A stretch of 59,927 nucleotides of DNA, from positions 1-59,927 of the IMG/VR virus record IMGVR_UViG_3300032330_000885. One strand, written 5' to 3'. The stretch's first letter is position 1; every line of letters begins with the position of its first letter. The stretch comes from a virus (Duplodnaviria; Caudoviricetes). The position numbers and the translations under genes are program-made. Shown here piece by piece: positions 4,601 through 36,527 of the stretch. Below the pieces are notes generated by a model that saw nothing but the letters and a program-made list of their open reading frames with translations, did not search any database and was not told where the DNA came from.

Positions 4601-5062
4601 TTATCCGAGATGGTAAGTCAGATATTGTATAGCGGCAAGAAGAACCTTAGGATCATCTTTCAGCTTTCCAATTCCTGTATTGCAATCAGAACACAACAAC
4701 CCTCTGATTCCGCCAGATTTATGGCAATGATCAACGGCAAGAGCTTTAACCTTACCCAATCTGGTAGCTGTCTCAGGTTGGTTACAGATTGCACAAAGGC
4801 CGTTTTGAGATTGAAGCAATTCAGAATACCTTTCTGGGGTAATTCCAAATTTTCTTTTTCTCTCGCCATCGCTTAGTGCTTTTCTGTTTTCTTCCCGATA
4901 CTGCTTTTGCCAACCACGCAGCTTTCCAAGTCTATCAGGATTATTTTTTATGCGCTCTGTCGAGCGTTTTTGAATAACCTTGATTTTTTCTGGGTTTTCC
5001 CTGCGGTATTTTGCAGTTCTTTCCCTGTCTTTTCGTCTGCGCTCATCAAGAGTATGTGTCAC
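4601..5062 (-). CDS. Endonuclease VII-family (His-Me) free-standing homing endonuclease
   Basis: Q.G.CAIC...LAVDHCH.SG.IRGLLCSDCNTGIG motif; basic helical N-terminus; inserted after the capsid gene. Confidence 0.88.
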   Translation of the reverse strand: MTHTLDERRRKDRERTAKYRRENPEKIKVIQKRSTERIKNNPDRLGKLRGWQKQYREENRKALSDGERKRKFGITPERYSELLQSQNGLCAICNQPETATRLGKVKALAVDHCHKSGGIRGLLCSDCNTGIGKLKDDPKVLLAAIQYLTYHLG

Positions 5063-5124: not shown

Positions 5125-6036
5125 TTAGCTTGGGAGCGATCCCCAAATGGACCGCCAATTATAATATCCAAAAGAGTAACGCTCGTAGCCCTTAACCAGC
5201 AAGTTATCTGTCGTAAAATCGACTGACATATCAGTTTCAAATTTGACACGCTCCATATAGGAGAGACCGTCAATATTCGTAAGCAAGAACCAAGCAGTTG
5301 CAGAGGTCAGATAGTCGTTGACCATGTAACCTTCAGGTAAACCACCTGCGGTTGTCATAATGGCGTTGACATCGTTGTCTGAGGTACCTGGGCGCAATTC
5401 AGTCTTAAGAAGACGGATTGCAATAGGTTCCAACTGCGGAGGCACAACCAACTTACGGCCACGAGCGAAGACCTTCAGGCCCGCCTGATCGCGGAAGTTG
5501 GTACGGATTGCAATCATACCAGCCAGCAGGGACGACTCGTTCAAGTCGATCTGAGTAGCAGGAGTGTTTGGAATCACACCGCCGTCGATAGGGTGGGATG
5601 CCGAAATCAGAGCCACACCGTCACCGCCGACCGAGGCGTTGTAGGTGGTGGATGTGTTCAGCACGTTCGCGCCGTAGATTTCCTTGGTCTGGGAGAAGCT
5701 CTCCATCAGGCCGAGGTTCGATGGCTTGAACTGGGTTTTGTACAGGTTGTCGTCAACAGCTTTACGAGTGATCGCATAGCCGAGGCCGATTTCTGTATGC
5801 TCTTGGTTGTAGACGTAACGCTCGCCAGCCGAGTTATCGAAAGCGGTCTGACCACCTTCGGTTTTCAACTGAGCATAACCAAGGAAGCGCATTTCAGCGG
5901 TGCGTTCCAGAGCCATTTTCGAGTCGTGCTTGGTGAAGATTTTGTCGTACTGGGCAGGAATCTGCTCGTACTTGCCTTCAATTCCACGGAGGCCGGGGAG
6001 CAGAAGGTCTTTAATGGCACTAAGATTAACAGCCAT
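5125..6036 (-). CDS. Major capsid protein
   Basis: 303 aa; LLPGL N-terminus, DGVALISASHP, ERYSFGYYNWR C-terminus; follows the scaffold region. Confidence 0.92.
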   Translation of the reverse strand: MAVNLSAIKDLLLPGLRGIEGKYEQIPAQYDKIFTKHDSKMALERTAEMRFLGYAQLKTEGGQTAFDNSAGERYVYNQEHTEIGLGYAITRKAVDDNLYKTQFKPSNLGLMESFSQTKEIYGANVLNTSTTYNASVGGDGVALISASHPIDGGVIPNTPATQIDLNESSLLAGMIAIRTNFRDQAGLKVFARGRKLVVPPQLEPIAIRLLKTELRPGTSDNDVNAIMTTAGGLPEGYMVNDYLTSATAWFLLTNIDGLSYMERVKFETDMSVDFTTDNLLVKGYERYSFGYYNWRSIWGSLPS

Positions 6037-7328: not shown

Positions 7329-8216
7329 TTAATGCCTCGTTTCTTGTCCACGACGAACTTGTTCCATGTATTCGGCTTCGGTCATACCCGAAATCTCAGC
7401 GGCTTCTTTCTGTGCTGCCGTGAGCCGAATGGCGTTCCTGCTGGTAGAGCTTGACCCTGCCGTGCGGGATGTCGGTGCAGCCGAAGGGGCTGATCGACGT
7501 TGTGTTGGCGCAGATGCCTCTGACATTGCGTCTCCGTCATCGCCGCGAAGGCCAAGACGGTTTTCGACATAATCGAAGTATTCTGGAGTGTCAGCTTTGT
7601 AGCCTTCATCCATCGCTTCTTCGTGCGCTCTGGTCATCTTTCTGAACAGCCGTTGATCTGTGACATATTCAGGGTGTGCACGAACCCAATCGGCAGATTG
7701 ACGCGACAATTGTGACGCGATTTGTTCAACAGGGTCCATAGGAGGGCCGTCAACACGCGGCTTCGGCGTTGTTTCCAGCTTGTTCTTGTAGCTTTCAAGC
7801 TCACGCAAGTTGGTTTTTGACTCAAAAACCACCTCATCAATCTCGGCAACCTTGTCATAGTCGCCGACAGCCATTGCCTCGACCTTCTGCTGCCGCAGAA
7901 TGTTCTGCTGCCGCTTTAGTTCGTCGATTGCACTTGCCACAAGGTGAATATTGGTATCGTGCGCGTCTGTGTTTGCCCGATTTGCATGCTCTGCAATCTC
8001 GCGGGCATGGTTTTCAGCGGCAATACGAGCCGCCTTTTCGCGGTCAAGCTGTTCACGAAGCTCGCTGATACCAACTTCAATGGGAAGTTCTTTTGGTGAT
8101 GCTTGGGCAACAGGCAATTCTTCCTGCGGCTGTTGCAAAAGGTCTACTTCTGGAGCGTCTGGCTCAAGAAACAGATCAAGTTCTTTCTGTTCACTCATGA
8201 TTATGGTCCTCACCAC
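7329..8216 (-). CDS. Capsid scaffolding protein
   Basis: Acidic N-terminus, coiled coil, Ser/Ala/Pro linker and C-terminal IRLT..Q..AA...GMT..EY helix pair; upstream of the capsid gene. The true start may be a few codons downstream. Confidence 0.75.
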   Translation of the reverse strand: MVRTIIMSEQKELDLFLEPDAPEVDLLQQPQEELPVAQASPKELPIEVGISELREQLDREKAARIAAENHAREIAEHANRANTDAHDTNIHLVASAIDELKRQQNILRQQKVEAMAVGDYDKVAEIDEVVFESKTNLRELESYKNKLETTPKPRVDGPPMDPVEQIASQLSRQSADWVRAHPEYVTDQRLFRKMTRAHEEAMDEGYKADTPEYFDYVENRLGLRGDDGDAMSEASAPTQRRSAPSAAPTSRTAGSSSTSRNAIRLTAAQKEAAEISGMTEAEYMEQVRRGQETRH

Positions 8217-8602
8217 ACTTGATCAGGGTCAGGAATGCGGACCCGAACGCTTATATCGTCGATAATCCGGCAAAGAACGCCGTTAATTGTAATGTTCCAG
8301 CCGTCAGACGGGCGAAACACTACCCACTCGTGGTTATCGACGGACATACCGTCAAACCACTTGCCTTCAGGGTCCACAAAAGCTGACGGACCTTGTTTGA
8401 CGACCAACCCAACCTTGGATTGATAGCGATCTTCCTTCAAATGCTGATCAGGCATGATGAGGCCGCTTTTTGTCTTCTCAGGGCGAAGATAAACGGCAAC
8501 CAAAAGCTGATTGTTAAAGATGTCGATGCTAGAAAGGTCGCCAATTTCATCCAAAATAACTTTTTTTGGATCGACATTGTGTTCCATTTTCATAAAACTC
8601 AT
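8210..8602 (-). CDS. groES: Co-chaperonin GroES-like protein
   Basis: EKTKSGLIMPD mobile loop and GLVVKQGP motif. Confidence 0.8.
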   Translation of the reverse strand: MSFMKMEHNVDPKKVILDEIGDLSSIDIFNNQLLVAVYLRPEKTKSGLIMPDQHLKEDRYQSKVGLVVKQGPSAFVDPEGKWFDGMSVDNHEWVVFRPSDGWNITINGVLCRIIDDISVRVRIPDPDQVW

Positions 8603-8884: not shown

Positions 8885-10798
8885 TCAGCGACCTCGTGCG
8901 GCAATCTCGGTCTTTTCGAGACGGCCCATACCGGAAGCGGCACCAGCATCCATGTCCTTATAGGACTTGTATGCCTTACCGCCGTGTTTGTGTGCAGTGC
9001 GCTTGGCAATCTCGGTCTTTTCCAAGCGGCCTAAGCCAGAGCCGGAACCTGCATCCATGTCTTTGTATGACTTGTACACACGGCCACCAGCCTTGCGCTG
9101 CATCATCTTTTCCAATCCCGCGGGCATCTGGGGAGGGCCACCAGCGGGGCCGCGCATTGGCATAGGAGGAGGACCCCCCGCGCCCGCTGGAGGCATAGGA
9201 GGAGGGCCACCTGCACCTGCTGGGGGCATAGGAGGAGGGCCAGCAGGAGGAGCTGCTTGCATTGGCATAGCAGGCGATGGCTGTTTGGGAGGCATACCGC
9301 CATTGTTTGGCATCAGACCATCCTGAGGCTGGCGCTTGCCAGTGTCAATAACGATCTCAATGTTAGTTTTGCCCTTAGCGCGACCACCTGAAGCACGTTT
9401 AGCACGACCGCCTTTTTTCAATCCAGCAGTTGATTCCTGCTCGTCATGCTTTTTGTCCTGCTTAGACTTTTCCCAAGCCATCATCGACATGCCGTACTTT
9501 TTGGCCAGCTTGGTATCTTGCATGGTGTCCTTTGCAGAACCTTCAAACGCGACCTTGCCGCCCTTCTTATAGGGCGAACCAGATGGGCCAGTGCCAAAGT
9601 TCAAACGGTTTTTATCAACCATGTCTGCGGGATTGTCTTTGTTAGGCTCAGGCTTCATCGCGCCTCCCGCGCCCTGCATTGTTCCGCCTGGCTGCATCAT
9701 AGGACCGCCCATGAACTTCTTGGCACGACCGCCCTTCTTCATGCGGTTGCCCATATCTTGTTGGCCCATCTCCGGAGCTTTGTAACCCATATCTTGGCCC
9801 GTTGCTATAGAAGGAGCTTGGTAACCCATATCTTGGCCCGTTGCACCGCGAGAAGATGTTCCCATAGATTGCATAATACGTTTCATTTCGTCGGCGTTCA
9901 TTTCATTCTGTGCAGAACCGCCGGGAGCTTTTTTTGACCGACCGCCCCAACACTTGGCTTCGGCTTTACCGCCTTTTTTCAAATTGGACGGACGCTCAGG
10001 TGGCATAGGAGCGGGACGAACGGGAGGCATTGGAGGATAATCAGAACCAGCACCTTTGCGGATTTCGTCGTCAGTCACATATTTGCCGCCAGGCCCAGTA
10101 ACACTGCGCGTGGTAATTTCACCTTCATATGGGTCACGGGCAGGAGCCTTCTTGCCCTTTACCGTGCCATCAGTTGCATGCTTTGCACGACCGCCAGATT
10201 TCATTGCATCGTCTTTTGACGCAGGAACATTAACGCCGAAACCTTTTGTCCCATACAATTTGGCCGCAGCCATTGCCAACCCTTTGGTGCGTTTGCCTGC
10301 TTCGTTTTTGAATTTGGCGTGGGTGCCCATGCCGCCTTCACCCGTGGCATTGTTGCGTTCCAAATATTCCGCACCACGTTCTGCGCCAGCGCGGGATTTT
10401 GCAGCTTTATTGGCATAATCAGCAAGTTTGCCGCCAGACAGTTTATGGGCACGACCGCCTTTTTTAAACGCGCCGATGTGCTTCTTGCCTTCGCGTTCTT
10501 CGTTGGCTTCCACCACGTTGCGGTTGATGAAGCTATCGGCTGACAAATCAGAGTTGCCACGCTTCTTCTTGTCAGCGCGTGGGGCATTAGCCGCTCCGAC
10601 AACCTTACCGCCGCTCTTGAACCGACGACGAGTCAGCGGACGTGCGCCAGTCTGTACATCGGCATTCAATGCTTCGGCAGGGGTAAAGTCTGATGCGCCA
10701 ATCTTCGTAGCATCAGAGCCGGAAGCAAGGCGAGCTGCCTTGGCTTTCATTGCGGCCCGCAATGTCTTGGAGGAATATTCAGTCATGGTAGTCTCCAT
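8885..10798 (-). CDS. Low-complexity Lys/Gly/Pro/Met-rich protein with many xKxGG repeats (putative internal virion polyprotein)
   Basis: About 14 xxGG motifs; duplicated YKSYKDMDAG...GRLEKTEIA at the C-terminus. Confidence 0.8.
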   Translation of the reverse strand: METTMTEYSSKTLRAAMKAKAARLASGSDATKIGASDFTPAEALNADVQTGARPLTRRRFKSGGKVVGAANAPRADKKKRGNSDLSADSFINRNVVEANEEREGKKHIGAFKKGGRAHKLSGGKLADYANKAAKSRAGAERGAEYLERNNATGEGGMGTHAKFKNEAGKRTKGLAMAAAKLYGTKGFGVNVPASKDDAMKSGGRAKHATDGTVKGKKAPARDPYEGEITTRSVTGPGGKYVTDDEIRKGAGSDYPPMPPVRPAPMPPERPSNLKKGGKAEAKCWGGRSKKAPGGSAQNEMNADEMKRIMQSMGTSSRGATGQDMGYQAPSIATGQDMGYKAPEMGQQDMGNRMKKGGRAKKFMGGPMMQPGGTMQGAGGAMKPEPNKDNPADMVDKNRLNFGTGPSGSPYKKGGKVAFEGSAKDTMQDTKLAKKYGMSMMAWEKSKQDKKHDEQESTAGLKKGGRAKRASGGRAKGKTNIEIVIDTGKRQPQDGLMPNNGGMPPKQPSPAMPMQAAPPAGPPPMPPAGAGGPPPMPPAGAGGPPPMPMRGPAGGPPQMPAGLEKMMQRKAGGRVYKSYKDMDAGSGSGLGRLEKTEIAKRTAHKHGGKAYKSYKDMDAGAASGMGRLEKTEIAARGR

Positions 10799-10819: not shown

Positions 10820-12952
10820 TTATCGGCCAGTCCGATCTTTGGATAATAACTCAAGTGCGCGTTTTACGATAGGCCCACCATCAGCTTTTACGATTACATG
10901 ATTGTAGACTGGATGTTCCTTACCGCGAACTGAAATAGTGCCGACCTGATTGCCAAAAGTAATTTTTCCTTTAGTGGTTGGGCGCAACCGAGGCTCCTCA
11001 TTCCGATCTGGATATTTAGCCAAATCGACGCCTTTTGGGTAATGAGCATTTAAAGCGTAATGGTGATCATCTCCATGATGCACGGAAATAACTGTATTTG
11101 TGTCTTCGTGGCCTTCTGGAGCCTCCAACCATTTCCAACCTGCTTTTTGTTTAAACAGGTTGGTTTTGCTCATGCGGGTGCCTTTGCCCCGTGATCCCGT
11201 TTGTTCAACGGTATCCGGCGACACGTTAAATGTTGGCCGACCGCCTGGCGCAATGCCAATAGAAGCCTGTGCGGCCTTGTGGCCTGTCATGTCTTCCTTG
11301 GTCTTGGCGTTCAGATACTGCCCGCCAGCGGGCCTGTTTTCTTCAGGAAACATTCGTTGCGGCTTTGGGAACACCGAGATCGGGTTCTTGATGTCTGGGA
11401 TGTCATCAACCGCGCCACCCTGCTCATATTTGCGCTTGATATGAACATCGTTGTGGTCAAACACGACATAGTTGTAAGTTGGCTCTGCTTTGTTACCACG
11501 AGAGCCAGCATCACGGTACTTGATGCCTTTGATGCCGTGGCCCGACAGGTGCTTGGTGACATTTTCTGGCGATCCAAGACCGCCCTCATGTTTGCCAGTT
11601 AACCATTGGTAAAGGTCGGCACCACGCAAATCACTCGGTTTGCCGTCAAACATATCCTGCGCTGCTTGATGCAAGTTGTGACCACTTTTTGCAAGAGTGC
11701 GCTGCACATGCTCCGACTGTTCATTTAGTGGCTTATCCCAATCCAACATGTGGTGTGGATGTGCATTGATATGCACCTCGTACATGTGGCCGCCGGGGCT
11801 AAACTCCCCGCTTTCAAAATGTTTTTTAACAGCCGCAACAGCATCTGCGGTCATAGCTGGAGCCGTATGCCCAGCTCCATTTTTATATTTATCCAACCAT
11901 GCAATAGCCCCTTCTGGAGTGTTGTCACTGAAGGTAAGAGCCATTTGCCCAATACGTTTATGTAATGAATCTATGGAATCGGGTGCTTTAAGTGTGGGAG
12001 ATAAATCATTTTTATACCTTTTCGCCACAGGTTCATGCTCGGCAAAATATAGTCCATGCCCATATGCCTGTGCGCCTTCACCCGTGCCGATTTTGCTGGT
12101 GTCGAACTCGTCAAAGTCGTGCGGCGACCCGTGATACGCTGTGATGCCGTCTTGTTCTACAGGGCCGCCACCTTCCTTGCCAATAGCGGGCTTGGCCTGA
12201 TGCTGATGCAATGCCACAAAAATAGGGATTTCCTCGTTCCCTAATTGGTCATGCGCCATCAACCCATCATAACCCTCTTTGTGCATCTGCTTCCGCACTC
12301 GAGGGGAATACACAAGATCGTTTAGGTTCGTTCCATCGTAGTTGGAATGCTTGCTAATCTCGTCTGTGTCAAAATCCCATGAACCATTGGGAAAATTCTG
12401 CACATCAATCTTCGCCCCTGCACGGCGGGCAAGATCAATAAATTTCATTGCTCCCTCTCGGCCACGAACATCCAGAGGGTTCTTCATGCTCAATTTGGTG
12501 GGGTATACACGCGCACCTTCTTCACCGCGCCAATTCGCGTAATAATCGGCATGCTGAGGATTGGCAGCAAAGAACGCAGGAATATGAAACCCGCCAGAAA
12601 CGTCTTTGTTTGTGCCGTGATAAACAACATCAGGCACTTCTGGGTGGTTTGAAACTTCTCCGCCGTCTGCTTTGGTGATAGGTTCAATTTGTGAACTGAT
12701 TGCATCAACAATGTGTTTGGGTGCCTCTGCATCACGCCATGCAGTATTAACCTTACCGCCTGGGTCAACCCAAAAGAATCCAGCGTCACCATGATTCATG
12801 GCATCTTGTGATTGCGGAGAGACATAAAAAGAGTGGTGGAAATCCGCAGCTTGTGCCCGCTTGTATGGATGCACTTCACGGATATACCCATCATGGGAAT
12901 CAAAAATGCCTGACCAAAATTTGCGGCCTTTATGAATGGCGGTATCCATCAC
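10820..12952 (-). CDS. Polyvalent protein with two ADP-ribosyltransferase-like domains
   Basis: VVYHGT...FFA...A..YA...VYP..L.MKNPL...GYDG, and AYHGSPHDFDEFD.SKIGTGEGAQAYG.GLYFAE...GIKY.D..SR...NYVVFD. Confidence 0.75.
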   Translation of the reverse strand: MMDTAIHKGRKFWSGIFDSHDGYIREVHPYKRAQAADFHHSFYVSPQSQDAMNHGDAGFFWVDPGGKVNTAWRDAEAPKHIVDAISSQIEPITKADGGEVSNHPEVPDVVYHGTNKDVSGGFHIPAFFAANPQHADYYANWRGEEGARVYPTKLSMKNPLDVRGREGAMKFIDLARRAGAKIDVQNFPNGSWDFDTDEISKHSNYDGTNLNDLVYSPRVRKQMHKEGYDGLMAHDQLGNEEIPIFVALHQHQAKPAIGKEGGGPVEQDGITAYHGSPHDFDEFDTSKIGTGEGAQAYGHGLYFAEHEPVAKRYKNDLSPTLKAPDSIDSLHKRIGQMALTFSDNTPEGAIAWLDKYKNGAGHTAPAMTADAVAAVKKHFESGEFSPGGHMYEVHINAHPHHMLDWDKPLNEQSEHVQRTLAKSGHNLHQAAQDMFDGKPSDLRGADLYQWLTGKHEGGLGSPENVTKHLSGHGIKGIKYRDAGSRGNKAEPTYNYVVFDHNDVHIKRKYEQGGAVDDIPDIKNPISVFPKPQRMFPEENRPAGGQYLNAKTKEDMTGHKAAQASIGIAPGGRPTFNVSPDTVEQTGSRGKGTRMSKTNLFKQKAGWKWLEAPEGHEDTNTVISVHHGDDHHYALNAHYPKGVDLAKYPDRNEEPRLRPTTKGKITFGNQVGTISVRGKEHPVYNHVIVKADGGPIVKRALELLSKDRTGR

Positions 12953-15900: not shown

Positions 15901-16245
15901 GCCAGCGTGTTCAAGCTCGGCGGGCTTCACGCCTGCGTTCTTCATCATGCCGATCATCTGTTCGGCTGGGCCTTTGCTCTGCTGCAACTGGCCCGCGACC
16001 TCTGCGGCGTGGCTGTACAAGCCAGAAGGAGCCACCACACGCGGCTTTGGAGCGAACACCGAACCCTGCGTGGTGTTCTTGGGTGTTGCTTCTGCCACAG
16101 GAGGAGCCGCTGGAGCAGGGTTGTCCATGCGCTGCTGCACAACTTGCTTGGCAAGATCAAGAGGGGCATCTGCGCCCCCGCCTGACTTGTGTGTACGAAG
16201 GTGATCGCCAATAAGATCAAGAGCGCGGAGGACAACCTTTGACAT
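12949..16245 (-). CDS. Large polyvalent-type protein (EExQSDW domain plus a second unknown module)
   Basis: LPGGENYREVLL, SHWNEPNVLAHIR, HVEELQSDWGQ and GMKGYYD motifs; directly after the portal gene. Confidence 0.75.
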   Translation of the reverse strand: MSKVVLRALDLIGDHLRTHKSGGGADAPLDLAKQVVQQRMDNPAPAAPPVAEATPKNTTQGSVFAPKPRVVAPSGLYSHAAEVAGQLQQSKGPAEQMIGMMKNAGVKPAELEHAGMITDTGDVHPDFAGRTVTRDELHKHLVDSMPKVEEKVLGENVLPKLKSKRYESELEKKYNLEPFTVFDHMDLFTNEERNKLRDLSGQYLDSYSDKEPPKFKKWSLPGGENYREVLLKTPPSWKPVIQEKYGRFGFEGPDGKYRDYWSESDAQQAARSFFRDSGDFTSSHWNEPNVLAHIRMSDRTGPNGEKLLHVEELQSDWGQEGREHGFKNPEVESRRKELTKSLADATQKRLDEFKRIHDQHATDLTPYLEARKKAMAEADKKFFSSKQGFSEINEYNQVGEKIEEELAHLRVDADAKKNAAFNQYGTRYNEPIDKLKKELDNLPKSGDTPHGPYVTSTQGWTDLALKRALKEAAEGGYHGVVFTPGAEHAKRYDLSKQVNNVYYDPDLQGGTLAAEGINGHTVLDKSGIKPENIADYIGKEAAEKLLTQPRNVHGHHVLEGDGLKIGGEGMKGYYDKIVPTQLQKLVKGYDKDVKLETKWTPVEGKNKSTNEIASALGMTVDQINAMPKDEKWAAINSVKNKMPMLHLPITDKMRESVLKGQKAFADGGEVEEYRKGGSVSPEDAEYQRRLTELLRPDHEDPAMVQRYLRVKQSYEMPTHERGAYSNRVLSMPAHDVTSKVNRLGNAVPQQGPSMSWHQFHRIGKGGTLFTLGGDRSNLGRLTHINGEKLAWPVDLHAGTKYMTEPNEGAVWANAQSPATALQNNIREAAKKGPVYGVFAPMGPTAVDSSNNMFDALMAQVPKSGMSADTAEKIDKSLRSGLHIKGKTTKDEAARSKAIQEMESWPGIMNAEKARDFAKNISGAHRAAIVKHLESAPFQNAGFPSVGLTRAAITDPEMLSVSGNMMGHHLVELHEGEFDPKNLAFEHSTYPVATPGKFIGKVPLIERHVAQPDFVESQLRDKSTSILHPYSPNAGGRSGFRGNTELRQGIQPINERMLESIEEKHGSSFAKGGTAKAHPASIIPGVHIVGHNPIFHGDE

Positions 16246-18551
16246 CAGCCTTCTTCCTTCAGTTCACTCACGAATTTCGGGTCCAGCATCTGCTCGGCAA
16301 GCGGTGTCGACTGCGGGTCTTTGATCAAATCGCGCACAATACCCGCATATGCCACCCGTTCGCGGGCCTCACGGTCTGCCGCACGGTTCTGAGCATCCAT
16401 GCTAACGTCCCTAGACTGCAATTCCAGCTTATTGCGCTCGTTCTCCAGTGCCGCCAGCTTCAATTGGTTGTCCACAGGGTCTTTTTGTGCCGCTGGCTGC
16501 TGCATTTTGGCCATTTGTGCTTGTGCCAGCATCATTTTGGTCTGCGAATCAGCCTGATCCACCTGCACCTTGGCTTGTACGGCCATTGTTTTGGCATCAG
16601 CTTCCTGCTTTTTGATCTGCATCTGGGCCATAGCCTGTTGCATTTCAGGTGGCATGCGGCCCTGCGCCTCTGGAGGTGCCATAAACTGGTCTGGGTTGTT
16701 CCAGCCGATGGCCTTCAGTGCCGCCTTATCAATGGCAATCGGGTCATACATGGTTGGATTGGACGCCTGAAGCTGTTTCAGGGCCATAATTTTCATGATT
16801 CGCTGTGCATGCGAGGCCGTATTGGGGTCTGCCTGCGGGATCAGCTCGTAATCGTTGCAAGCCTGCAAGAATGTCTGCTCGTCCCACGGGTGCGCTGGCT
16901 TGCGAATGCGCTGCCAGAAGCTCTCAGGGTTTTCCTTGAAGCATTCCAACAGCAACTGGAACTCATCGGCCTGCGATGCATGCATGCGCTTGTGAACCGA
17001 GTTCAACACCTTGGTGGCCTGCTCAATCATTGCCAGTGTGGTGCCGACAGGAGCGTCTGCGCGGCCTTCACCGACAGCCTGCTCGGACGTTCCACCAAGC
17101 CGCATGCCTGTTTCGGCCATGTTGGTAACCAGATTCATCAGGCCAGCACCAGCTTCCTTGTACGGGAGCGGCATGATCGCCTGATTGATCGGCATCCCGC
17201 CCGTCTTGACAAGCGCAGCCCCGCCTGGCGGTACACGGAAAATGTTGGTGTTCTGCCGCCCGCCCGTGTCAGCCATAAGGAAGCCAGGGAAGTTGGCAAA
17301 CATGCCCGCATCCAGCATCTCGCGCCACGCTGCCGTCACGGCATTGGTGGTGTTGCCGAGGATGTGCAGCAGGCCGATGTCATAGAACCCCATGCCTGGC
17401 ACGAAGGTGTATTTGACAAACGTGGACTTGGCGACAGGCAGTTCCTGATCGTCCTCGGCATAGTTGCGGACCACGGACAGAATCTTCTTGGTCGAAACGT
17501 CAATGGTCACGCGGTACGGGATTTCCAAACCGGACACCTTGCGCTTGTGCTTATGCTCGTAGCCATGGATATCCAGTTCGCAATAGCACTCGTAAATCTC
17601 GCGGTCGCGGTCATCTTGATTGAACGAATCGGTCGAAATGCCCTGCTGTGCGCTCTTGGCCATTTGGACGGCATCAAGGTTTGGCATGTTTGGGGTGGAC
17701 AGGTCGGTATCACGATACGCGCCAATGATCTGCATGCGCTTGACCACGGACGGGCGCATCATAATGCGGTGCGTAATGCGCTTGGCATTACTCAGATCGG
17801 TGGCCGAGTTATTCACAATCAAATCGTCGGCATCCACCGTCTCGGACACGGGGCGGTTGCGGAGCGGGCAGTAGTAGACCTTCTTGAACGCCGTACCGCC
17901 GAACCCCAGCATAAACAGCATGCGGTCGGTGTCGGGGTAGTATTCCTTCGCCACCGCCGTCAGGTAGTGGTTCATGTCGTTTTCAAGCGCGTCACCGAGC
18001 TGGTCTTCTTGCAGGTTTGCGCTGTTGTTGTCGTTGCGAATTTTCACTGGCCCATCAACAGGCAGCATTTCCGAACGGGCATTGGCCTGAAACCGCAACA
18101 CGGCTTCCAGCAGCAGCGGGTGCCTGATTTTCGACATGCCCTCGACGGGTGCGCCGTCTGCCGCGCCTTGCAGGCCTGGCAATTCGATCTTCAATCCCAA
18201 CAGTTTAATGCCCTGAGCGCGATCCTCGACCCACTCTTGGCGGCTCTGGATGTCGTCATCAATGCCACGCATCAGGTCTTCGGCGATCATTGACAGTTCG
18301 CCCTCGTCGATGTCGTCTACGAGGTTATCAAACCAGCCTGTCGGTTCTTTCTTTGCATCTGGGTCAATCGACTTGCCGTCCATCGAAATGGTGACCGACC
18401 CGTCATCGTGCTCGATGCGGATCAATTCGCCCTTGTCGTTGTACTGCTTGTTGCCTGCGGCCTGCTTTGGCTGTGGCAGATCGGAAAAATCCAGATCAGG
18501 CTCTTGGCCTTCCTCAACCTTACGGATATTGCCAAACGACAGACCAGCCAT
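16245..18551 (-). CDS. Portal protein (P22-like)
   Basis: HPLLLEAVLRFQA, GTAFKKVYY, GFYDIGLLH and APVGTTLA motifs; Gln-rich C-terminal coiled coil. Confidence 0.9.
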   Translation of the reverse strand: MAGLSFGNIRKVEEGQEPDLDFSDLPQPKQAAGNKQYNDKGELIRIEHDDGSVTISMDGKSIDPDAKKEPTGWFDNLVDDIDEGELSMIAEDLMRGIDDDIQSRQEWVEDRAQGIKLLGLKIELPGLQGAADGAPVEGMSKIRHPLLLEAVLRFQANARSEMLPVDGPVKIRNDNNSANLQEDQLGDALENDMNHYLTAVAKEYYPDTDRMLFMLGFGGTAFKKVYYCPLRNRPVSETVDADDLIVNNSATDLSNAKRITHRIMMRPSVVKRMQIIGAYRDTDLSTPNMPNLDAVQMAKSAQQGISTDSFNQDDRDREIYECYCELDIHGYEHKHKRKVSGLEIPYRVTIDVSTKKILSVVRNYAEDDQELPVAKSTFVKYTFVPGMGFYDIGLLHILGNTTNAVTAAWREMLDAGMFANFPGFLMADTGGRQNTNIFRVPPGGAALVKTGGMPINQAIMPLPYKEAGAGLMNLVTNMAETGMRLGGTSEQAVGEGRADAPVGTTLAMIEQATKVLNSVHKRMHASQADEFQLLLECFKENPESFWQRIRKPAHPWDEQTFLQACNDYELIPQADPNTASHAQRIMKIMALKQLQASNPTMYDPIAIDKAALKAIGWNNPDQFMAPPEAQGRMPPEMQQAMAQMQIKKQEADAKTMAVQAKVQVDQADSQTKMMLAQAQMAKMQQPAAQKDPVDNQLKLAALENERNKLELQSRDVSMDAQNRAADREARERVAYAGIVRDLIKDPQSTPLAEQMLDPKFVSELKEEG

Positions 18552-18552
18552 G

Positions 18553-18762
18553 TTATTTCCCTTCAGCGGCGAGAAGAGCTTCAACCTCGGCTACAAACCG
18601 TTGAATACCCTGCTGTGCGGCCATTGTATCTGATTTTGCCTGAATTTCATAGATGCGAACGTAATCATTAGGAGCCACGCCCCAAACTTCAACTTTAAAC
18701 AACCCAAGACCCTTTGGGGTCGCGGCGTTAATAACGTCCACTACAGCATTTGCTAATATCAT
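18553..18762 (-). CDS. Hypothetical protein
   Basis: 69 aa; AAGGAG RBS; abuts the portal gene. Confidence 0.7.
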   Translation of the reverse strand: MILANAVVDVINAATPKGLGLFKVEVWGVAPNDYVRIYEIQAKSDTMAAQQGIQRFVAEVEALLAAEGK

Positions 18763-33525: not shown

Positions 33526-33762
33526 ATGACAATGACATATGCAATCGAAAAAGGCATTCCTACTCCAGAGCTGCGTTTCCCTCGTAAAAAATCAGCAAAA
33601 TACCCATTTGCTAAAATGAAAGTGGGTGATAGCTTTTTTGTCCCTGAAGGGAAACTAACTAGGATTTCTACATCAATGGCATATTTCCACAATCATAATA
33701 AACCTAAGCGCGTCACTGGTCGGACAGTCGAAGGTGGCGTTCGTATTTGGAGGATTAAGTGA
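33526..33762 (+). CDS. Small basic putative DNA-binding protein
   Basis: IEKGIP.P...KYPF..M.VGDSFFVP...GVRIWR, a common phage family. Confidence 0.8.
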   Translation: MTMTYAIEKGIPTPELRFPRKKSAKYPFAKMKVGDSFFVPEGKLTRISTSMAYFHNHNKPKRVTGRTVEGGVRIWRIK

Positions 33763-34160
33763 TGGGGTTCGATGCAGCAAACCCACAGGCGCATTATGCG
33801 GCCATTCGCGCAAAATTCAATAAGGCACCAATCCCGTTAAGGGTGGTGCCACCATTACCAGAGCCAGAGCATATACCTGCGCCAAATCACGTTCTGGAGG
33901 CCGAGATCAGCCGTTTGCAGGTTCTGATGGAGGGTTGCCGCATCCCGCCACGATTGCGCCTTCTGGTGCTCCCTATGGTCGAGGATTGTGACATCCCGTG
34001 GCTTGATCTGGTGTCGTCATCTCGCAAAGAATACTTGAAGGGGCCGCGCCGAAAAATATGGGCGATGCTCCAGCGCGAAGGGCTGTCATTGCCGCAGATT
34101 GGTAAAATGTTCAATCGTGACCACACGACCATTTTGCACGGCATCAATGCGACTCGTTGA
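33759..34160 (+). CDS. Protein with DnaA C-terminal (domain IV)-like HTH
   Basis: LSLPQIGKMFNRDHTTILHG. Confidence 0.85.
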   Translation: MMGFDAANPQAHYAAIRAKFNKAPIPLRVVPPLPEPEHIPAPNHVLEAEISRLQVLMEGCRIPPRLRLLVLPMVEDCDIPWLDLVSSSRKEYLKGPRRKIWAMLQREGLSLPQIGKMFNRDHTTILHGINATR

Positions 34161-35880: not shown

Positions 35881-35908
35881 AAGGGGGCTTCGGCCCCCTT
35901 CACTTTTT
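35881..35908 (+). terminator. Rho-independent terminator
   Basis: AAGGGGGC-TTCG-GCCCCCTT followed by CACTTTTT. Confidence 0.8.
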
Positions 35909-35919
35909 GGAGAGTAACA

Positions 35920-36291
35920 ATGCAAGACCCTAACACCATATTTATAGAAGCCGCTGGTTTTTCCACACGAGCCAAAAATGCTTTACTAAATTTAAATTTC
36001 AAAACTTTGGGAGATGTTGTTGATATGACAGATATTGAAATGCTCAGAACTCCAAATTTCGGGAAAAAGAGCCTGAAAGATATGAAGGATGTTCTGGCTA
36101 AACATGGGTTTGTTTACGAGCCTGTTAGTATACGACTGACAAAAGCAATGCAGTCTGCTGCGGAAATTGCTGGCATGACTGAGGAAGAATACGGAAGGAT
36201 GGCTCTTATGCTGCATCGAGACAAAATATGCTATTTTAGCAATGTAAAATATCGGTATGTTTGGCAACCACCACAGGAATCCAAAGCATGA
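35920..36291 (+). CDS. RNA polymerase alpha-CTD-like protein fused to a scaffold-like C-terminal motif
   Basis: FSTRAKNALL..NF.TLGDVV......MLRTPNFGKKSL..MK.VL matches RpoA CTD; followed by IRLTKAMQSAAEIAGMTEEEY. Confidence 0.85.
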   Translation: MQDPNTIFIEAAGFSTRAKNALLNLNFKTLGDVVDMTDIEMLRTPNFGKKSLKDMKDVLAKHGFVYEPVSIRLTKAMQSAAEIAGMTEEEYGRMALMLHRDKICYFSNVKYRYVWQPPQESKA

Positions 36292-36527
36292 AACTGACTT
36301 TACGCGAACAGATGATGTTGACCGCCATGAAGACGTATGCTGGCAGAAACATGCCAGCGGATGTTATCCATAATTTGCTCGGCCTGTCGCGGCAGGCAAC
36401 CATTGTGTGCATCCGTAGGCTTTGCCACAAGTTGCTTCACCGCAAAATAGTTGTTGAGCGTGTGTCTAAGTTGGGGAGGGGTCACACTGGTGAATATGCC
36501 ATACCCTTGACGATTACGGACGCCTGA
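36288..36527 (+). CDS. Putative winged-helix small protein
   Basis: ATGA coupling; MKLTLREQ...GRGHTGEY. Confidence 0.55.
   Translation: MKLTLREQMMLTAMKTYAGRNMPADVIHNLLGLSRQATIVCIRRLCHKLLHRKIVVERVSKLGRGHTGEYAIPLTITDA

Follow-up and report, generated by a model that had tools for sequence, protein, structure and literature searches.

A small gene in the virus genome analysed here encodes a free copy of the C-terminal domain of the RNA polymerase (RNAP) alpha subunit (alpha-CTD), which carries, within a beta-hairpin, a helix-turn-helix (HTH) cassette that sequence and profile comparisons identify as homologous to the C-terminus of the putative scaffold protein of the same virus. The gene is found at positions 35920-36291 on the plus strand of this genome, a complete virus record that is 59,927 bp long, carries direct terminal repeats, and is referred to here as the window. 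Our analysis showed that residues 5-60 of the 123-aa product are a genuine RNAP alpha-CTD. For the combination as a whole, we tentatively favor a reading in which the scaffold-derived cassette docks on the coat protein and recruits the free alpha-CTD inside assembling procapsids; this is a possibility suggested by structural modelling and by analogy with characterised scaffolds, and we place it a little short of an even chance. The features on which the argument turns are the following, with coordinates given on the window:

35881-35900, plus strand: terminator-like G+C hairpin followed by a T run (8-pair stem with 6 GC pairs, 4-nt loop, tail CACTTTTTGG)
35909-35914, plus strand: ribosome-binding site GGAGAG, 5 nt before the ATG, as read from the sequence
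35920-36291, plus strand: coding sequence of 123 aa, in which a beta-hairpin interrupted by a scaffold-type HTH comes after the alpha-CTD
35932-36099, plus strand: alpha-CTD domain, residues 5-60 (PF03118, Foldseek)
36109-36132, plus strand: first strand of the predicted beta-hairpin, residues 64-71 (AlphaFold2 model, AF2)
36127-36219, plus strand: scaffold-type HTH cassette, residues 70-100, with predicted helices at 75-83 and 88-100
36244-36273, plus strand: second predicted strand and conserved tail VKYRYVWQPP, residues 109-118 (AF2 model)
36288-36527, plus strand: downstream open reading frame (ORF) of 79 aa, whose ATG overlaps the stop codon of the alpha-CTD gene (ATGA)
7329-8216, minus strand: scaffold-like protein, ORF of 295 aa (by position and architecture)
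7341-7433, minus strand: predicted C-terminal HTH of the scaffold-like protein, residues 262-292, with helices at 267-276 and 280-292

A free RNA polymerase alpha-CTD

A preliminary description of this DNA, made from its letters before any database search, had recognized an RpoA alpha-CTD in the N-terminal part of the protein, and family, chain, and fold searches all bear this out. Residues 5-60 match PF03118 (RNA_pol_A_CTD) at 56.1 bits, above the cut-off of 23.8 (E 3e-15), and this match was confirmed on the genome. Among solved structures the protein matches alpha-CTD chains, with Caulobacter 9zum_A in first place (E 5.6e-11). The AF2 model, built from an 11-sequence alignment, has a mean predicted local distance difference test (pLDDT) value of 87.9. 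Its top Foldseek matches are all alpha-CTD structures, with template modelling (TM) scores by target of 0.63-0.80 and root-mean-square deviations of 1.1-2.6 in the top nine rows, and solved structures are matched only by the alpha-CTD part of the protein. Query residues 15-64 align with residues 263-312 of E. coli RpoA, with R17, N20, G48, K50, and S51 standing opposite positions 265, 268, 296, 298, and 299; further upstream, A11 and G13 stand opposite 259 and 261. We take R265, N268, G296, K298, and S299 of E. coli RpoA to be the residues that contact UP-element DNA. Within 13 family sequences R17, G48, K50, and S51 are invariant, and N20 is replaced by threonine in the short-type sequences described below. 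The closest bacterial domain is that of Caulobacter, at 43% identity over 63 columns, which is too distant to name the host.

The protein is not itself an RpoA, as it is only 123 aa long, starts four residues before the CTD match, and has neither the alpha N-terminal domain nor the linker. Because the N-terminal domain is missing, the protein cannot be part of the polymerase and is a free alpha-CTD. The MQDP at its start is kept in homologues, and the gene has a GC content of 39.5% (33.9% at third codon positions), compared with 51% for the genome. With the terminator-like hairpin directly upstream, there is no room for a promoter belonging to the gene alone. At the other end, the ATGA overlap suggests translational coupling of the alpha-CTD gene and the 79-aa ORF, which had no match in Pfam or PHROG and is not conserved beside the alpha-CTD gene in two related loci, L001 and L003.

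The inserted cassette and its homology to the scaffold C-terminus

In the AF2 model the alpha-CTD helices (residues 16-61) are followed by a strand (64-71), the two helices of the cassette (75-83 and 88-100), and a second strand (109-115). This order of elements would place the HTH as an insert at the turn of a beta-hairpin located behind the alpha-CTD. The tail is strongly conserved, with Y111-W115 and P117 invariant in the 13 family sequences. The model adds a point that the letters alone could not give to the preliminary description, namely that the scaffold-like motif is an internal cassette enclosed between strands 64-71 and 109-115 and not a free C-terminus behind a flexible linker. Pfam searches with the two C-terminal pieces gave nothing meaningful, and an ESM Atlas features search with the cassette returned no usable match, its structure rows having TM scores below 0.5.

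We take the product of 7329-8216 as the putative scaffold on the basis of position and architecture, and gene order and model both speak for this assignment, which the preliminary description had already made. The gene is located between the portal and major capsid genes, and the same order of a GroES-like gene, a scaffold-like gene, and a major capsid gene is found in MW202675.1, the sole related GenBank phage record. The predicted structure (pLDDT 76) has the long helical and disordered build of a scaffold: a disordered N-terminus (1-42), long helices (46-149), a small helical domain (162-221), and a disordered linker (226-259) that leads to the C-terminal HTH. Translation probably starts at M7, at position 8198, which gives a protein of 289 aa; the database protein P0011 is also 289 aa long and 100% identical. 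The window protein has no Pfam or PHROG match of its own, and a profile search of the PDB with the scaffold family gave coiled-coil noise only (E 0.096 or worse), with no solved scaffold matched. The family comprises 41 listed relatives and at least 586 members in IMG/VR. Matches to phrog_28737 (function not assigned) were found in 14 of 33 relatives, matches to phrog_328 (head maturation protease) in 3 of 33 with E values up to 0.01, and weak matches to PF10123 (Mu-like I protein) in 6 of 33, the best of these (E 0.027) being below the cut-off. In addition, when eight relatives were scanned one by one, the C-terminal 45-55 residues of seven of them match positions ~284-337 of the 339 in phrog_328 (E 7e-4 to 0.07). 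No prohead protease gene was identified among the window proteins scanned against Pfam and PHROG.

The link between the two proteins was first noticed as a short run of shared residues, and it holds up in every detail. The residues encoded at 36130-36192 are identical to those encoded at 7368-7430 on the minus strand at 15 of 21 positions. This pairing scores 72 with BLOSUM62; when the scaffold was shuffled 500 times, the best scores had a mean of 23.7, a standard deviation of 3.5, and a maximum of 36. BLASTP of residues 70-91 against the scaffold C-terminus likewise found 15 of 22 positions identical (E 6e-7), and a six-frame scan of the whole window found no third copy of the motif, the next best score being 26. 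At the DNA level the two copies share 40 of 63 bases, and 10 of the 14 degenerate codons for identical residues differ synonymously. As the preliminary description had argued, these synonymous differences point to conservation at the protein level after an old divergence and not to a recent copy.

Profile comparisons extend this similarity from one pair of proteins to two families. In hhalign, the middle region of the alpha-CTD family aligns with the C-termini of the scaffold family over 36 columns (98.5%, E 2e-15). Of 41 related records, 40 have a scaffold C-terminus that the alpha-CTD-family profile matches, in every case through profile positions ~66-117 and in none through 1-65. A hidden Markov model (HMM) of the scaffold C-terminus in turn picks out the alpha-CTD proteins encoded in the window, L003, and L004. 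Both structural models have the same two-helix form, with helices of 9-10 and 13 residues. Three HTH residues, T74, A81, and Y91, never vary in the alpha-CTD family, and in the BLASTP alignment they stand opposite T266, A273, and Y283 of the scaffold; within the scaffold family A273 is invariant and Y283 nearly so, and T266 is not among the invariant positions. When the scaffold consensus C-terminus is used, the similarity continues past the core motif into the second helix. On these sequence and profile comparisons, the cassette and the scaffold C-terminal HTH are homologous at the family level.

The window provides the sole true pair in which co-variation of a cassette with its cognate scaffold could be followed, so as a substitute we ranked 82 distinct scaffold C-termini for each cassette. 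The window cassette is nearest to its own scaffold clade, with 15 of 24 identities compared with 14 of 24 for the next best. Cassettes of the other clade match other scaffolds at 17-18 of 30-32 positions and match the window scaffold poorly (8-9 of ~30). This ranking fits a cassette that tracks its lineage, but it is not significant and could equally reflect separate captures.

Distribution of the gene and its possible roles

Homologues of the 123-aa protein numbered 10 among 16 candidates, at 54-97% identity, and all 10 keep the cassette and the YRYVWQPP tail. The motif that the preliminary description expected to see in homologues of the gene is therefore present in every close one, and two further long forms also carry it. 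A search with an 82-aa relative from L001 found 10 proteins among 10 candidates, including two short forms (P0200, 82 aa, and P0201, 84 aa) in which the alpha-CTD runs directly into the tail through a tight turn, without the HTH. P0201 and the 131-aa P0202 have a near-identical alpha-CTD and tail, and the difference between them is the HTH block; the cassette of P0202 is in turn closely like those of P0004 and P0006. With the window included, there are 13 long-form and 2 short-form clusters, or ~15 at 90% identity. Judged from these sequences, the HTH insert behaves as a cassette with apparent gain and loss.

The record behind L001 (G001), the one short-form genome examined, has both a short form and a separate copy of the HTH. 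Its short-form alpha-CTD gene comes directly after the large terminase gene, and two ORFs further downstream there is an orphan 142-aa protein with the HTH (L001 10770-11198, plus strand, equal to the G001:C1:15778-15987 region), which matches the scaffold profile at 236-299 with an E value of 1.3e-7. The true scaffold of G001 is located elsewhere on the contig. The 142-aa protein has a twin-arginine-like hydrophobic N-terminus and a stretch rich in Ala, Val, and Thr, and its scaffold-type HTH is centrally placed. The rest of the protein has no homologue in the loci compared, and the match of the protein to positions 277-330 of the 330 in PF10123 is sub-threshold (E 0.007). In L001 and L003 the alpha-CTD gene lies within the late structural module, on the structural strand between terminase and portal, and in the window it does not.

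The family is rare. Neither an alpha-CTD gene nor a second HTH copy was found in any of 41 related IMG/VR records, five of them complete, and an unfiltered hmmsearch of all ORFs of at least 30 aa in the five complete relatives again found neither. Pattern scans yielded one relative among 384 matches in IMG/VR and none among 138 matches in bacterial genomes, which were scanned for prophage copies; a metagenome scan gave six among 174, of which two are family members and four match the alpha-CTD only. Against 1.84 billion representatives at 50% identity, 5395 proteins match the profile at E values up to 0.001, and among the 150 of these that were listed only P0009 (1-127) and P0010 (30-126) have a best stretch that reaches past profile position 85. 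The remaining listed matches are to the alpha-CTD, which is often repeated within a large protein; P0052, P0054, and P0068 consist of many tandem alpha-CTD-like repeats, with 11 matched stretches in the 1031 aa of P0052. The neighbors of the alpha-CTD gene in the window have almost no homologues in the five complete relatives, and as a result no clean insertion boundary can be drawn. Judged by its gene context, the gene behaves as a mobile accessory gene, and because the family is rare, its biological reach would be narrow even if the mechanism proved neat.

We consider coat docking reasonably likely beforehand on account of the HTH homology, as characterised scaffold C-terminal elements dock on the inner face of the coat and cargo fused to them is encapsidated. 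The scaffold C-termini of 80alpha and P22 both contact the N-arm helix of the coat, according to the sections of PMC12749128 that deal with them. The capsid protein of the window, the putative docking partner of the cassette and of the scaffold HTH alike, belongs to a group that is 81-91% identical across 23 related phages, and its N-terminal 18 residues are almost invariant. The capsid proteins (loci L011-L090) and the scaffolds of these phages, which are only ~40-50% identical to that of the window, have changed at very unequal rates.

The preliminary description had proposed a fold of the complex with the capsid protein, and we carried this out by pairing the capsid protein (24-row alignment) with residues 62-123 of the 123-aa protein (11-row alignment). 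This pair scored 0.46 (runs of 0.42, 0.46, and 0.47), compared with 0.00 for the best of three controls. The runs share at least 95% of their contacts, and the pLDDT of the partner is 76 or higher. The mark that the pair passed lets through 58 of 80 solved complexes and 2 of 110 mismatched pairs, but passing scores of 0.60 or less come from only 7 of the 80 solved complexes and from both passing mismatches. A pass this weak is wrong more often than not, except where the contact was already probable on other grounds. The proposed fold thus weakly supports contact with the coat.

By analogy, the HTH would most likely dock the 123-aa protein at the site where the 303-aa capsid protein binds the scaffold while procapsids assemble, and heads would in this way take up the alpha-CTD module. 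We are less sure that the loaded protein would leave the head with the DNA at the next infection, and less sure also that, once delivered, it would bias early transcription through AT-rich DNA or through partners of the host alpha-CTD. At its full extent, the proposal would make the HTH a portable natural encapsidation tag, used in cis or, as in G001, in trans, which delivers an alpha-CTD to reprogramme host transcription early in infection, perhaps together with the phage's own ADP-ribosyltransferase as its partner or as the enzyme for which it serves as pseudo-substrate or adaptor. We regard this wider form as doubtful.

Several observations weigh against loading through coat docking. The HTH is internal and held in the hairpin at both ends, whereas in the scaffold it forms a free C-terminus behind a disordered linker. 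Beyond the shared EY, the second helix of the window protein (GRMALMLHRD) is unlike that of its own scaffold (MEQVRRGQE). The two short-form clusters show that the alpha-CTD module can exist without the HTH, and the window gene is placed at the far end of the plus-strand block of replication genes, behind the terminator-like hairpin and outside the head module. Other likely head-internal proteins of the window, including a 710-aa protein with an ART-PolyVal ADP-ribosyltransferase domain, have no such HTH, so the HTH is not a general loading tag of this phage. The complex fold passed only weakly. Finally, a few injected copies of a non-catalytic, weakly DNA-binding domain would make a poor decoy against thousands of polymerases.

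Some of the same observations would suit a protein that never enters the head. It could act in the cytoplasm as an alpha-CTD decoy or anti-activator, competing for UP-element DNA or for activators, with the HTH re-used away from the coat for dimerisation, stability, or another partner. The position of the gene among early and replication genes in the window, the short forms that lack the HTH, the location of the HTH inside the protein, the divergence of its second helix from the cognate scaffold in the window clade, and the weakness of the complex fold are all consistent with such a role, as are other small phage proteins in BFVD that are annotated as alpha-CTD and have different C-terminal parts. 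However, A273 and Y283, invariant and nearly invariant in scaffolds, stay invariant as A81 and Y91 in the alpha-CTD family, and in the larger clade the similarity extends into the second helix (EYA.N.LEL..EG). The gap between the complex fold and its controls and the presence of an HTH-bearing gene near the short form in G001 also argue for a tie to the coat, and on balance we think a purely cytoplasmic role unlikely, if credible.

A tie to the coat could also serve regulation, as the preliminary description had suggested alongside packaging, with the alpha-CTD acting in the producing cell and its availability set by sequestration on coat or procapsids through the HTH, so that expression would follow the progress of head assembly. 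The HTH homology and the weak support for coat binding count for this idea just as they do for loading into heads, the gene is outside the head module in the window, and the ATGA overlap with the 79-aa ORF suggests an operon of small regulators. However, no phage promoters or target sites were identified, the gene is within the late structural strand in L001 and L003, and none of the 41 related phages needs a switch of this kind. Sequestration on procapsids is moreover physically the same as packaging and differs only in the site of function. We consider this regulator quite unlikely.

A third possibility is a role within the head itself, where the protein might bridge the coat, through the HTH, and packaged DNA, through the helix-hairpin-helix of the alpha-CTD, or might modulate assembly by competing with the scaffold for its site on the coat. 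The DNA-contact residues are kept and a scaffold-type HTH is present, and SaPI1 CpmB (PMC5644958) offers a precedent for competition at the scaffold site. However, the gene is absent from all 41 related records, which means that it is not needed for assembly or for DNA organisation, and capsid proteins are 81-91% identical across 23 loci, a different set of records. The net charge of the protein, counted from its sequence, is near neutral, unlike that of typical DNA-condensing head proteins. Such a role therefore seems improbable to us.

Head module, packaged effectors, and comparison with known systems

Family scans place the other main features of the genome as follows:

~1.4-26.4 kb, minus strand: block with the small and large terminase, portal, and head genes
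16245-18584, minus strand: portal, SU10-type (PF23899, E 2.2e-18)
between the portal and ART-PolyVal genes, minus strand: 1098-aa protein
10820-12952, minus strand: 710-aa ART-PolyVal ADP-ribosyltransferase-domain protein (PF18760, E 1.7e-16)
8885-10798, minus strand: 637-aa low-complexity protein of the head module, no family match
8210-8602, minus strand: GroES-like co-chaperonin (PF00166, E 8.7e-5; phrog_3188), immediately upstream of the scaffold gene
between the scaffold-like and major capsid genes, minus strand: two small proteins
5125-6036, minus strand: major capsid protein, 303 aa (PF25209, E 1.4e-8; phrog_371)
26.5-37.4 kb, plus strand: block of replication-type genes and small ORFs
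after the plus-strand block, minus strand: tail and lysis genes

Some of these proteins have features of their own. The 637-aa protein has KKGGRAK-type repeats, runs rich in Pro, Gly, and Met, and a duplicated C-terminal block. Adjoining the capsid gene is a 153-aa ORF (4601-5062, minus strand) whose Cys/His spacing gives the impression, from the sequence, of an HNH or endonuclease VII-like protein. In the plus-strand block, a 133-aa protein (33759-34160, plus strand) has an HTH of the DnaA C-terminal type (PF08299, E 8.8e-10). The ART-PolyVal gene, which adjoins the gene for the 1098-aa protein, is a candidate for a head-packaged, injected effector.

The last of these raises one more possible role for the 123-aa protein, as an adaptor or pseudo-substrate for a packaged ADP-ribosyltransferase, in which the alpha-CTD module, with its R265-equivalent arginine, would occupy the substrate site of the ART-PolyVal protein and the HTH would tether the pair to the procapsid. 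The ART-PolyVal protein is encoded between the portal and scaffold genes, with the 1098-aa ORF separating it from the portal, and both of the alpha-CTD-bearing records that were searched whole (G000 and G001) have one. Phages are known to package effectors, among them the T4 ADP-ribosyltransferase Alt, which modifies the RNAP alpha subunit, as stated in the relevant part of PMC5512222. However, an ART-PolyVal gene was also found in 2 of 13 searched records without the alpha-CTD gene (G020 and G033), so packaging of the transferase does not need the alpha-CTD gene, and none was found in the part of L003 examined (16.3 kb of a 38-kb record). In total, 4 of 15 records searched have an ART-PolyVal gene (G000, G001, G020, and G033), which is too few for a claim of association, and we think an adaptor role highly improbable.

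Parts of what we describe here are already known. A scaffold's coat-binding end has been borrowed before, in CpmB and in engineered P22 cargo, and unstudied free alpha-CTD-like phage proteins are present in databases. What seems to be new is the combination of an alpha-CTD with an internal scaffold-type cassette, its natural tag-less forms, and a tag in trans. No description of a phage-encoded free alpha-CTD or of a fusion of an alpha-CTD with a scaffold HTH, and hence of this combination, was found in the PMC and bioRxiv papers searched.

As an alpha-CTD, the 123-aa protein is like bacterial RpoA (PDB 9zum, 1lb2, and 3n4m) in Pfam family, fold, and DNA-contact positions, and unlike it in standing alone and in having the extra beta-hairpin and HTH. 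The alpha-CTD-like phage proteins of BFVD are likewise free domains of ~100-240 aa, such as A0A6J5QDR9 (133 aa) and A0A2P1JY10 of Rhodococcus phage Finch, but in a comparison made by structure alignment and annotation alone they align over the ~60-residue alpha-CTD only, with TM scores by target of ~0.4, and no sign of the hairpin or the HTH was seen.

As a possible packaged protein, it invites comparison with other cases of targeting to the head. T4 uses an N-terminal capsid targeting sequence that is cleaved, and the effector that it carries is catalytic. The protease of HK97 reportedly has a C-terminal targeting tail (Duda, Oh and Hendrix, 2013). As in both of these, a short peptide or domain would direct a non-structural protein into the prohead. 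Unlike the catalytic Alt, however, the cargo here would be a non-catalytic copy of the target domain itself. Such a cargo would be unusual, as it copies the host RNAP domain that reads UP elements and touches activators, the same domain that T4 Alt attacks enzymatically. The natural long and short forms and the copy in trans are ready-made controls for this idea.

Two systems come closest to the arrangement in the window. Proteins fused to a truncated P22 scaffold (residues 141-303 or 238-303) are encapsidated in vivo, as reported in the part of PMC9962691 on these constructs, and the 123-aa protein looks like a natural version of this design; the P22 constructs described there have a free C-terminal tail, while the 123-aa protein has only ~30 residues of scaffold type, placed internally. 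If the HTH docks on the coat, the protein would be the natural counterpart of such engineered cargo. The satellite protein SaPI1 CpmB carries the C-terminal helix-and-hook of the 80alpha scaffold, binds the same site on the coat, and competes with the scaffold, as set out in the passages of PMC5644958 that concern it. Both are non-scaffold proteins with a homologous copy of a scaffold's C-terminal element, which in CpmB is the coat-binding element itself. They also differ, in that CpmB is described in those passages as satellite-encoded, as redirecting capsid size, and as having a terminal helix-and-hook on a dimerisation domain, whereas the copy described here is in the phage's own genome, is modelled as an internal HTH in a beta-hairpin, is joined to an alpha-CTD, and binds the coat only in prediction. 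Should docking on the coat hold, this would be a second natural borrowing of the coat-binding end of a scaffold after CpmB, one that loads cargo rather than resizing the capsid.

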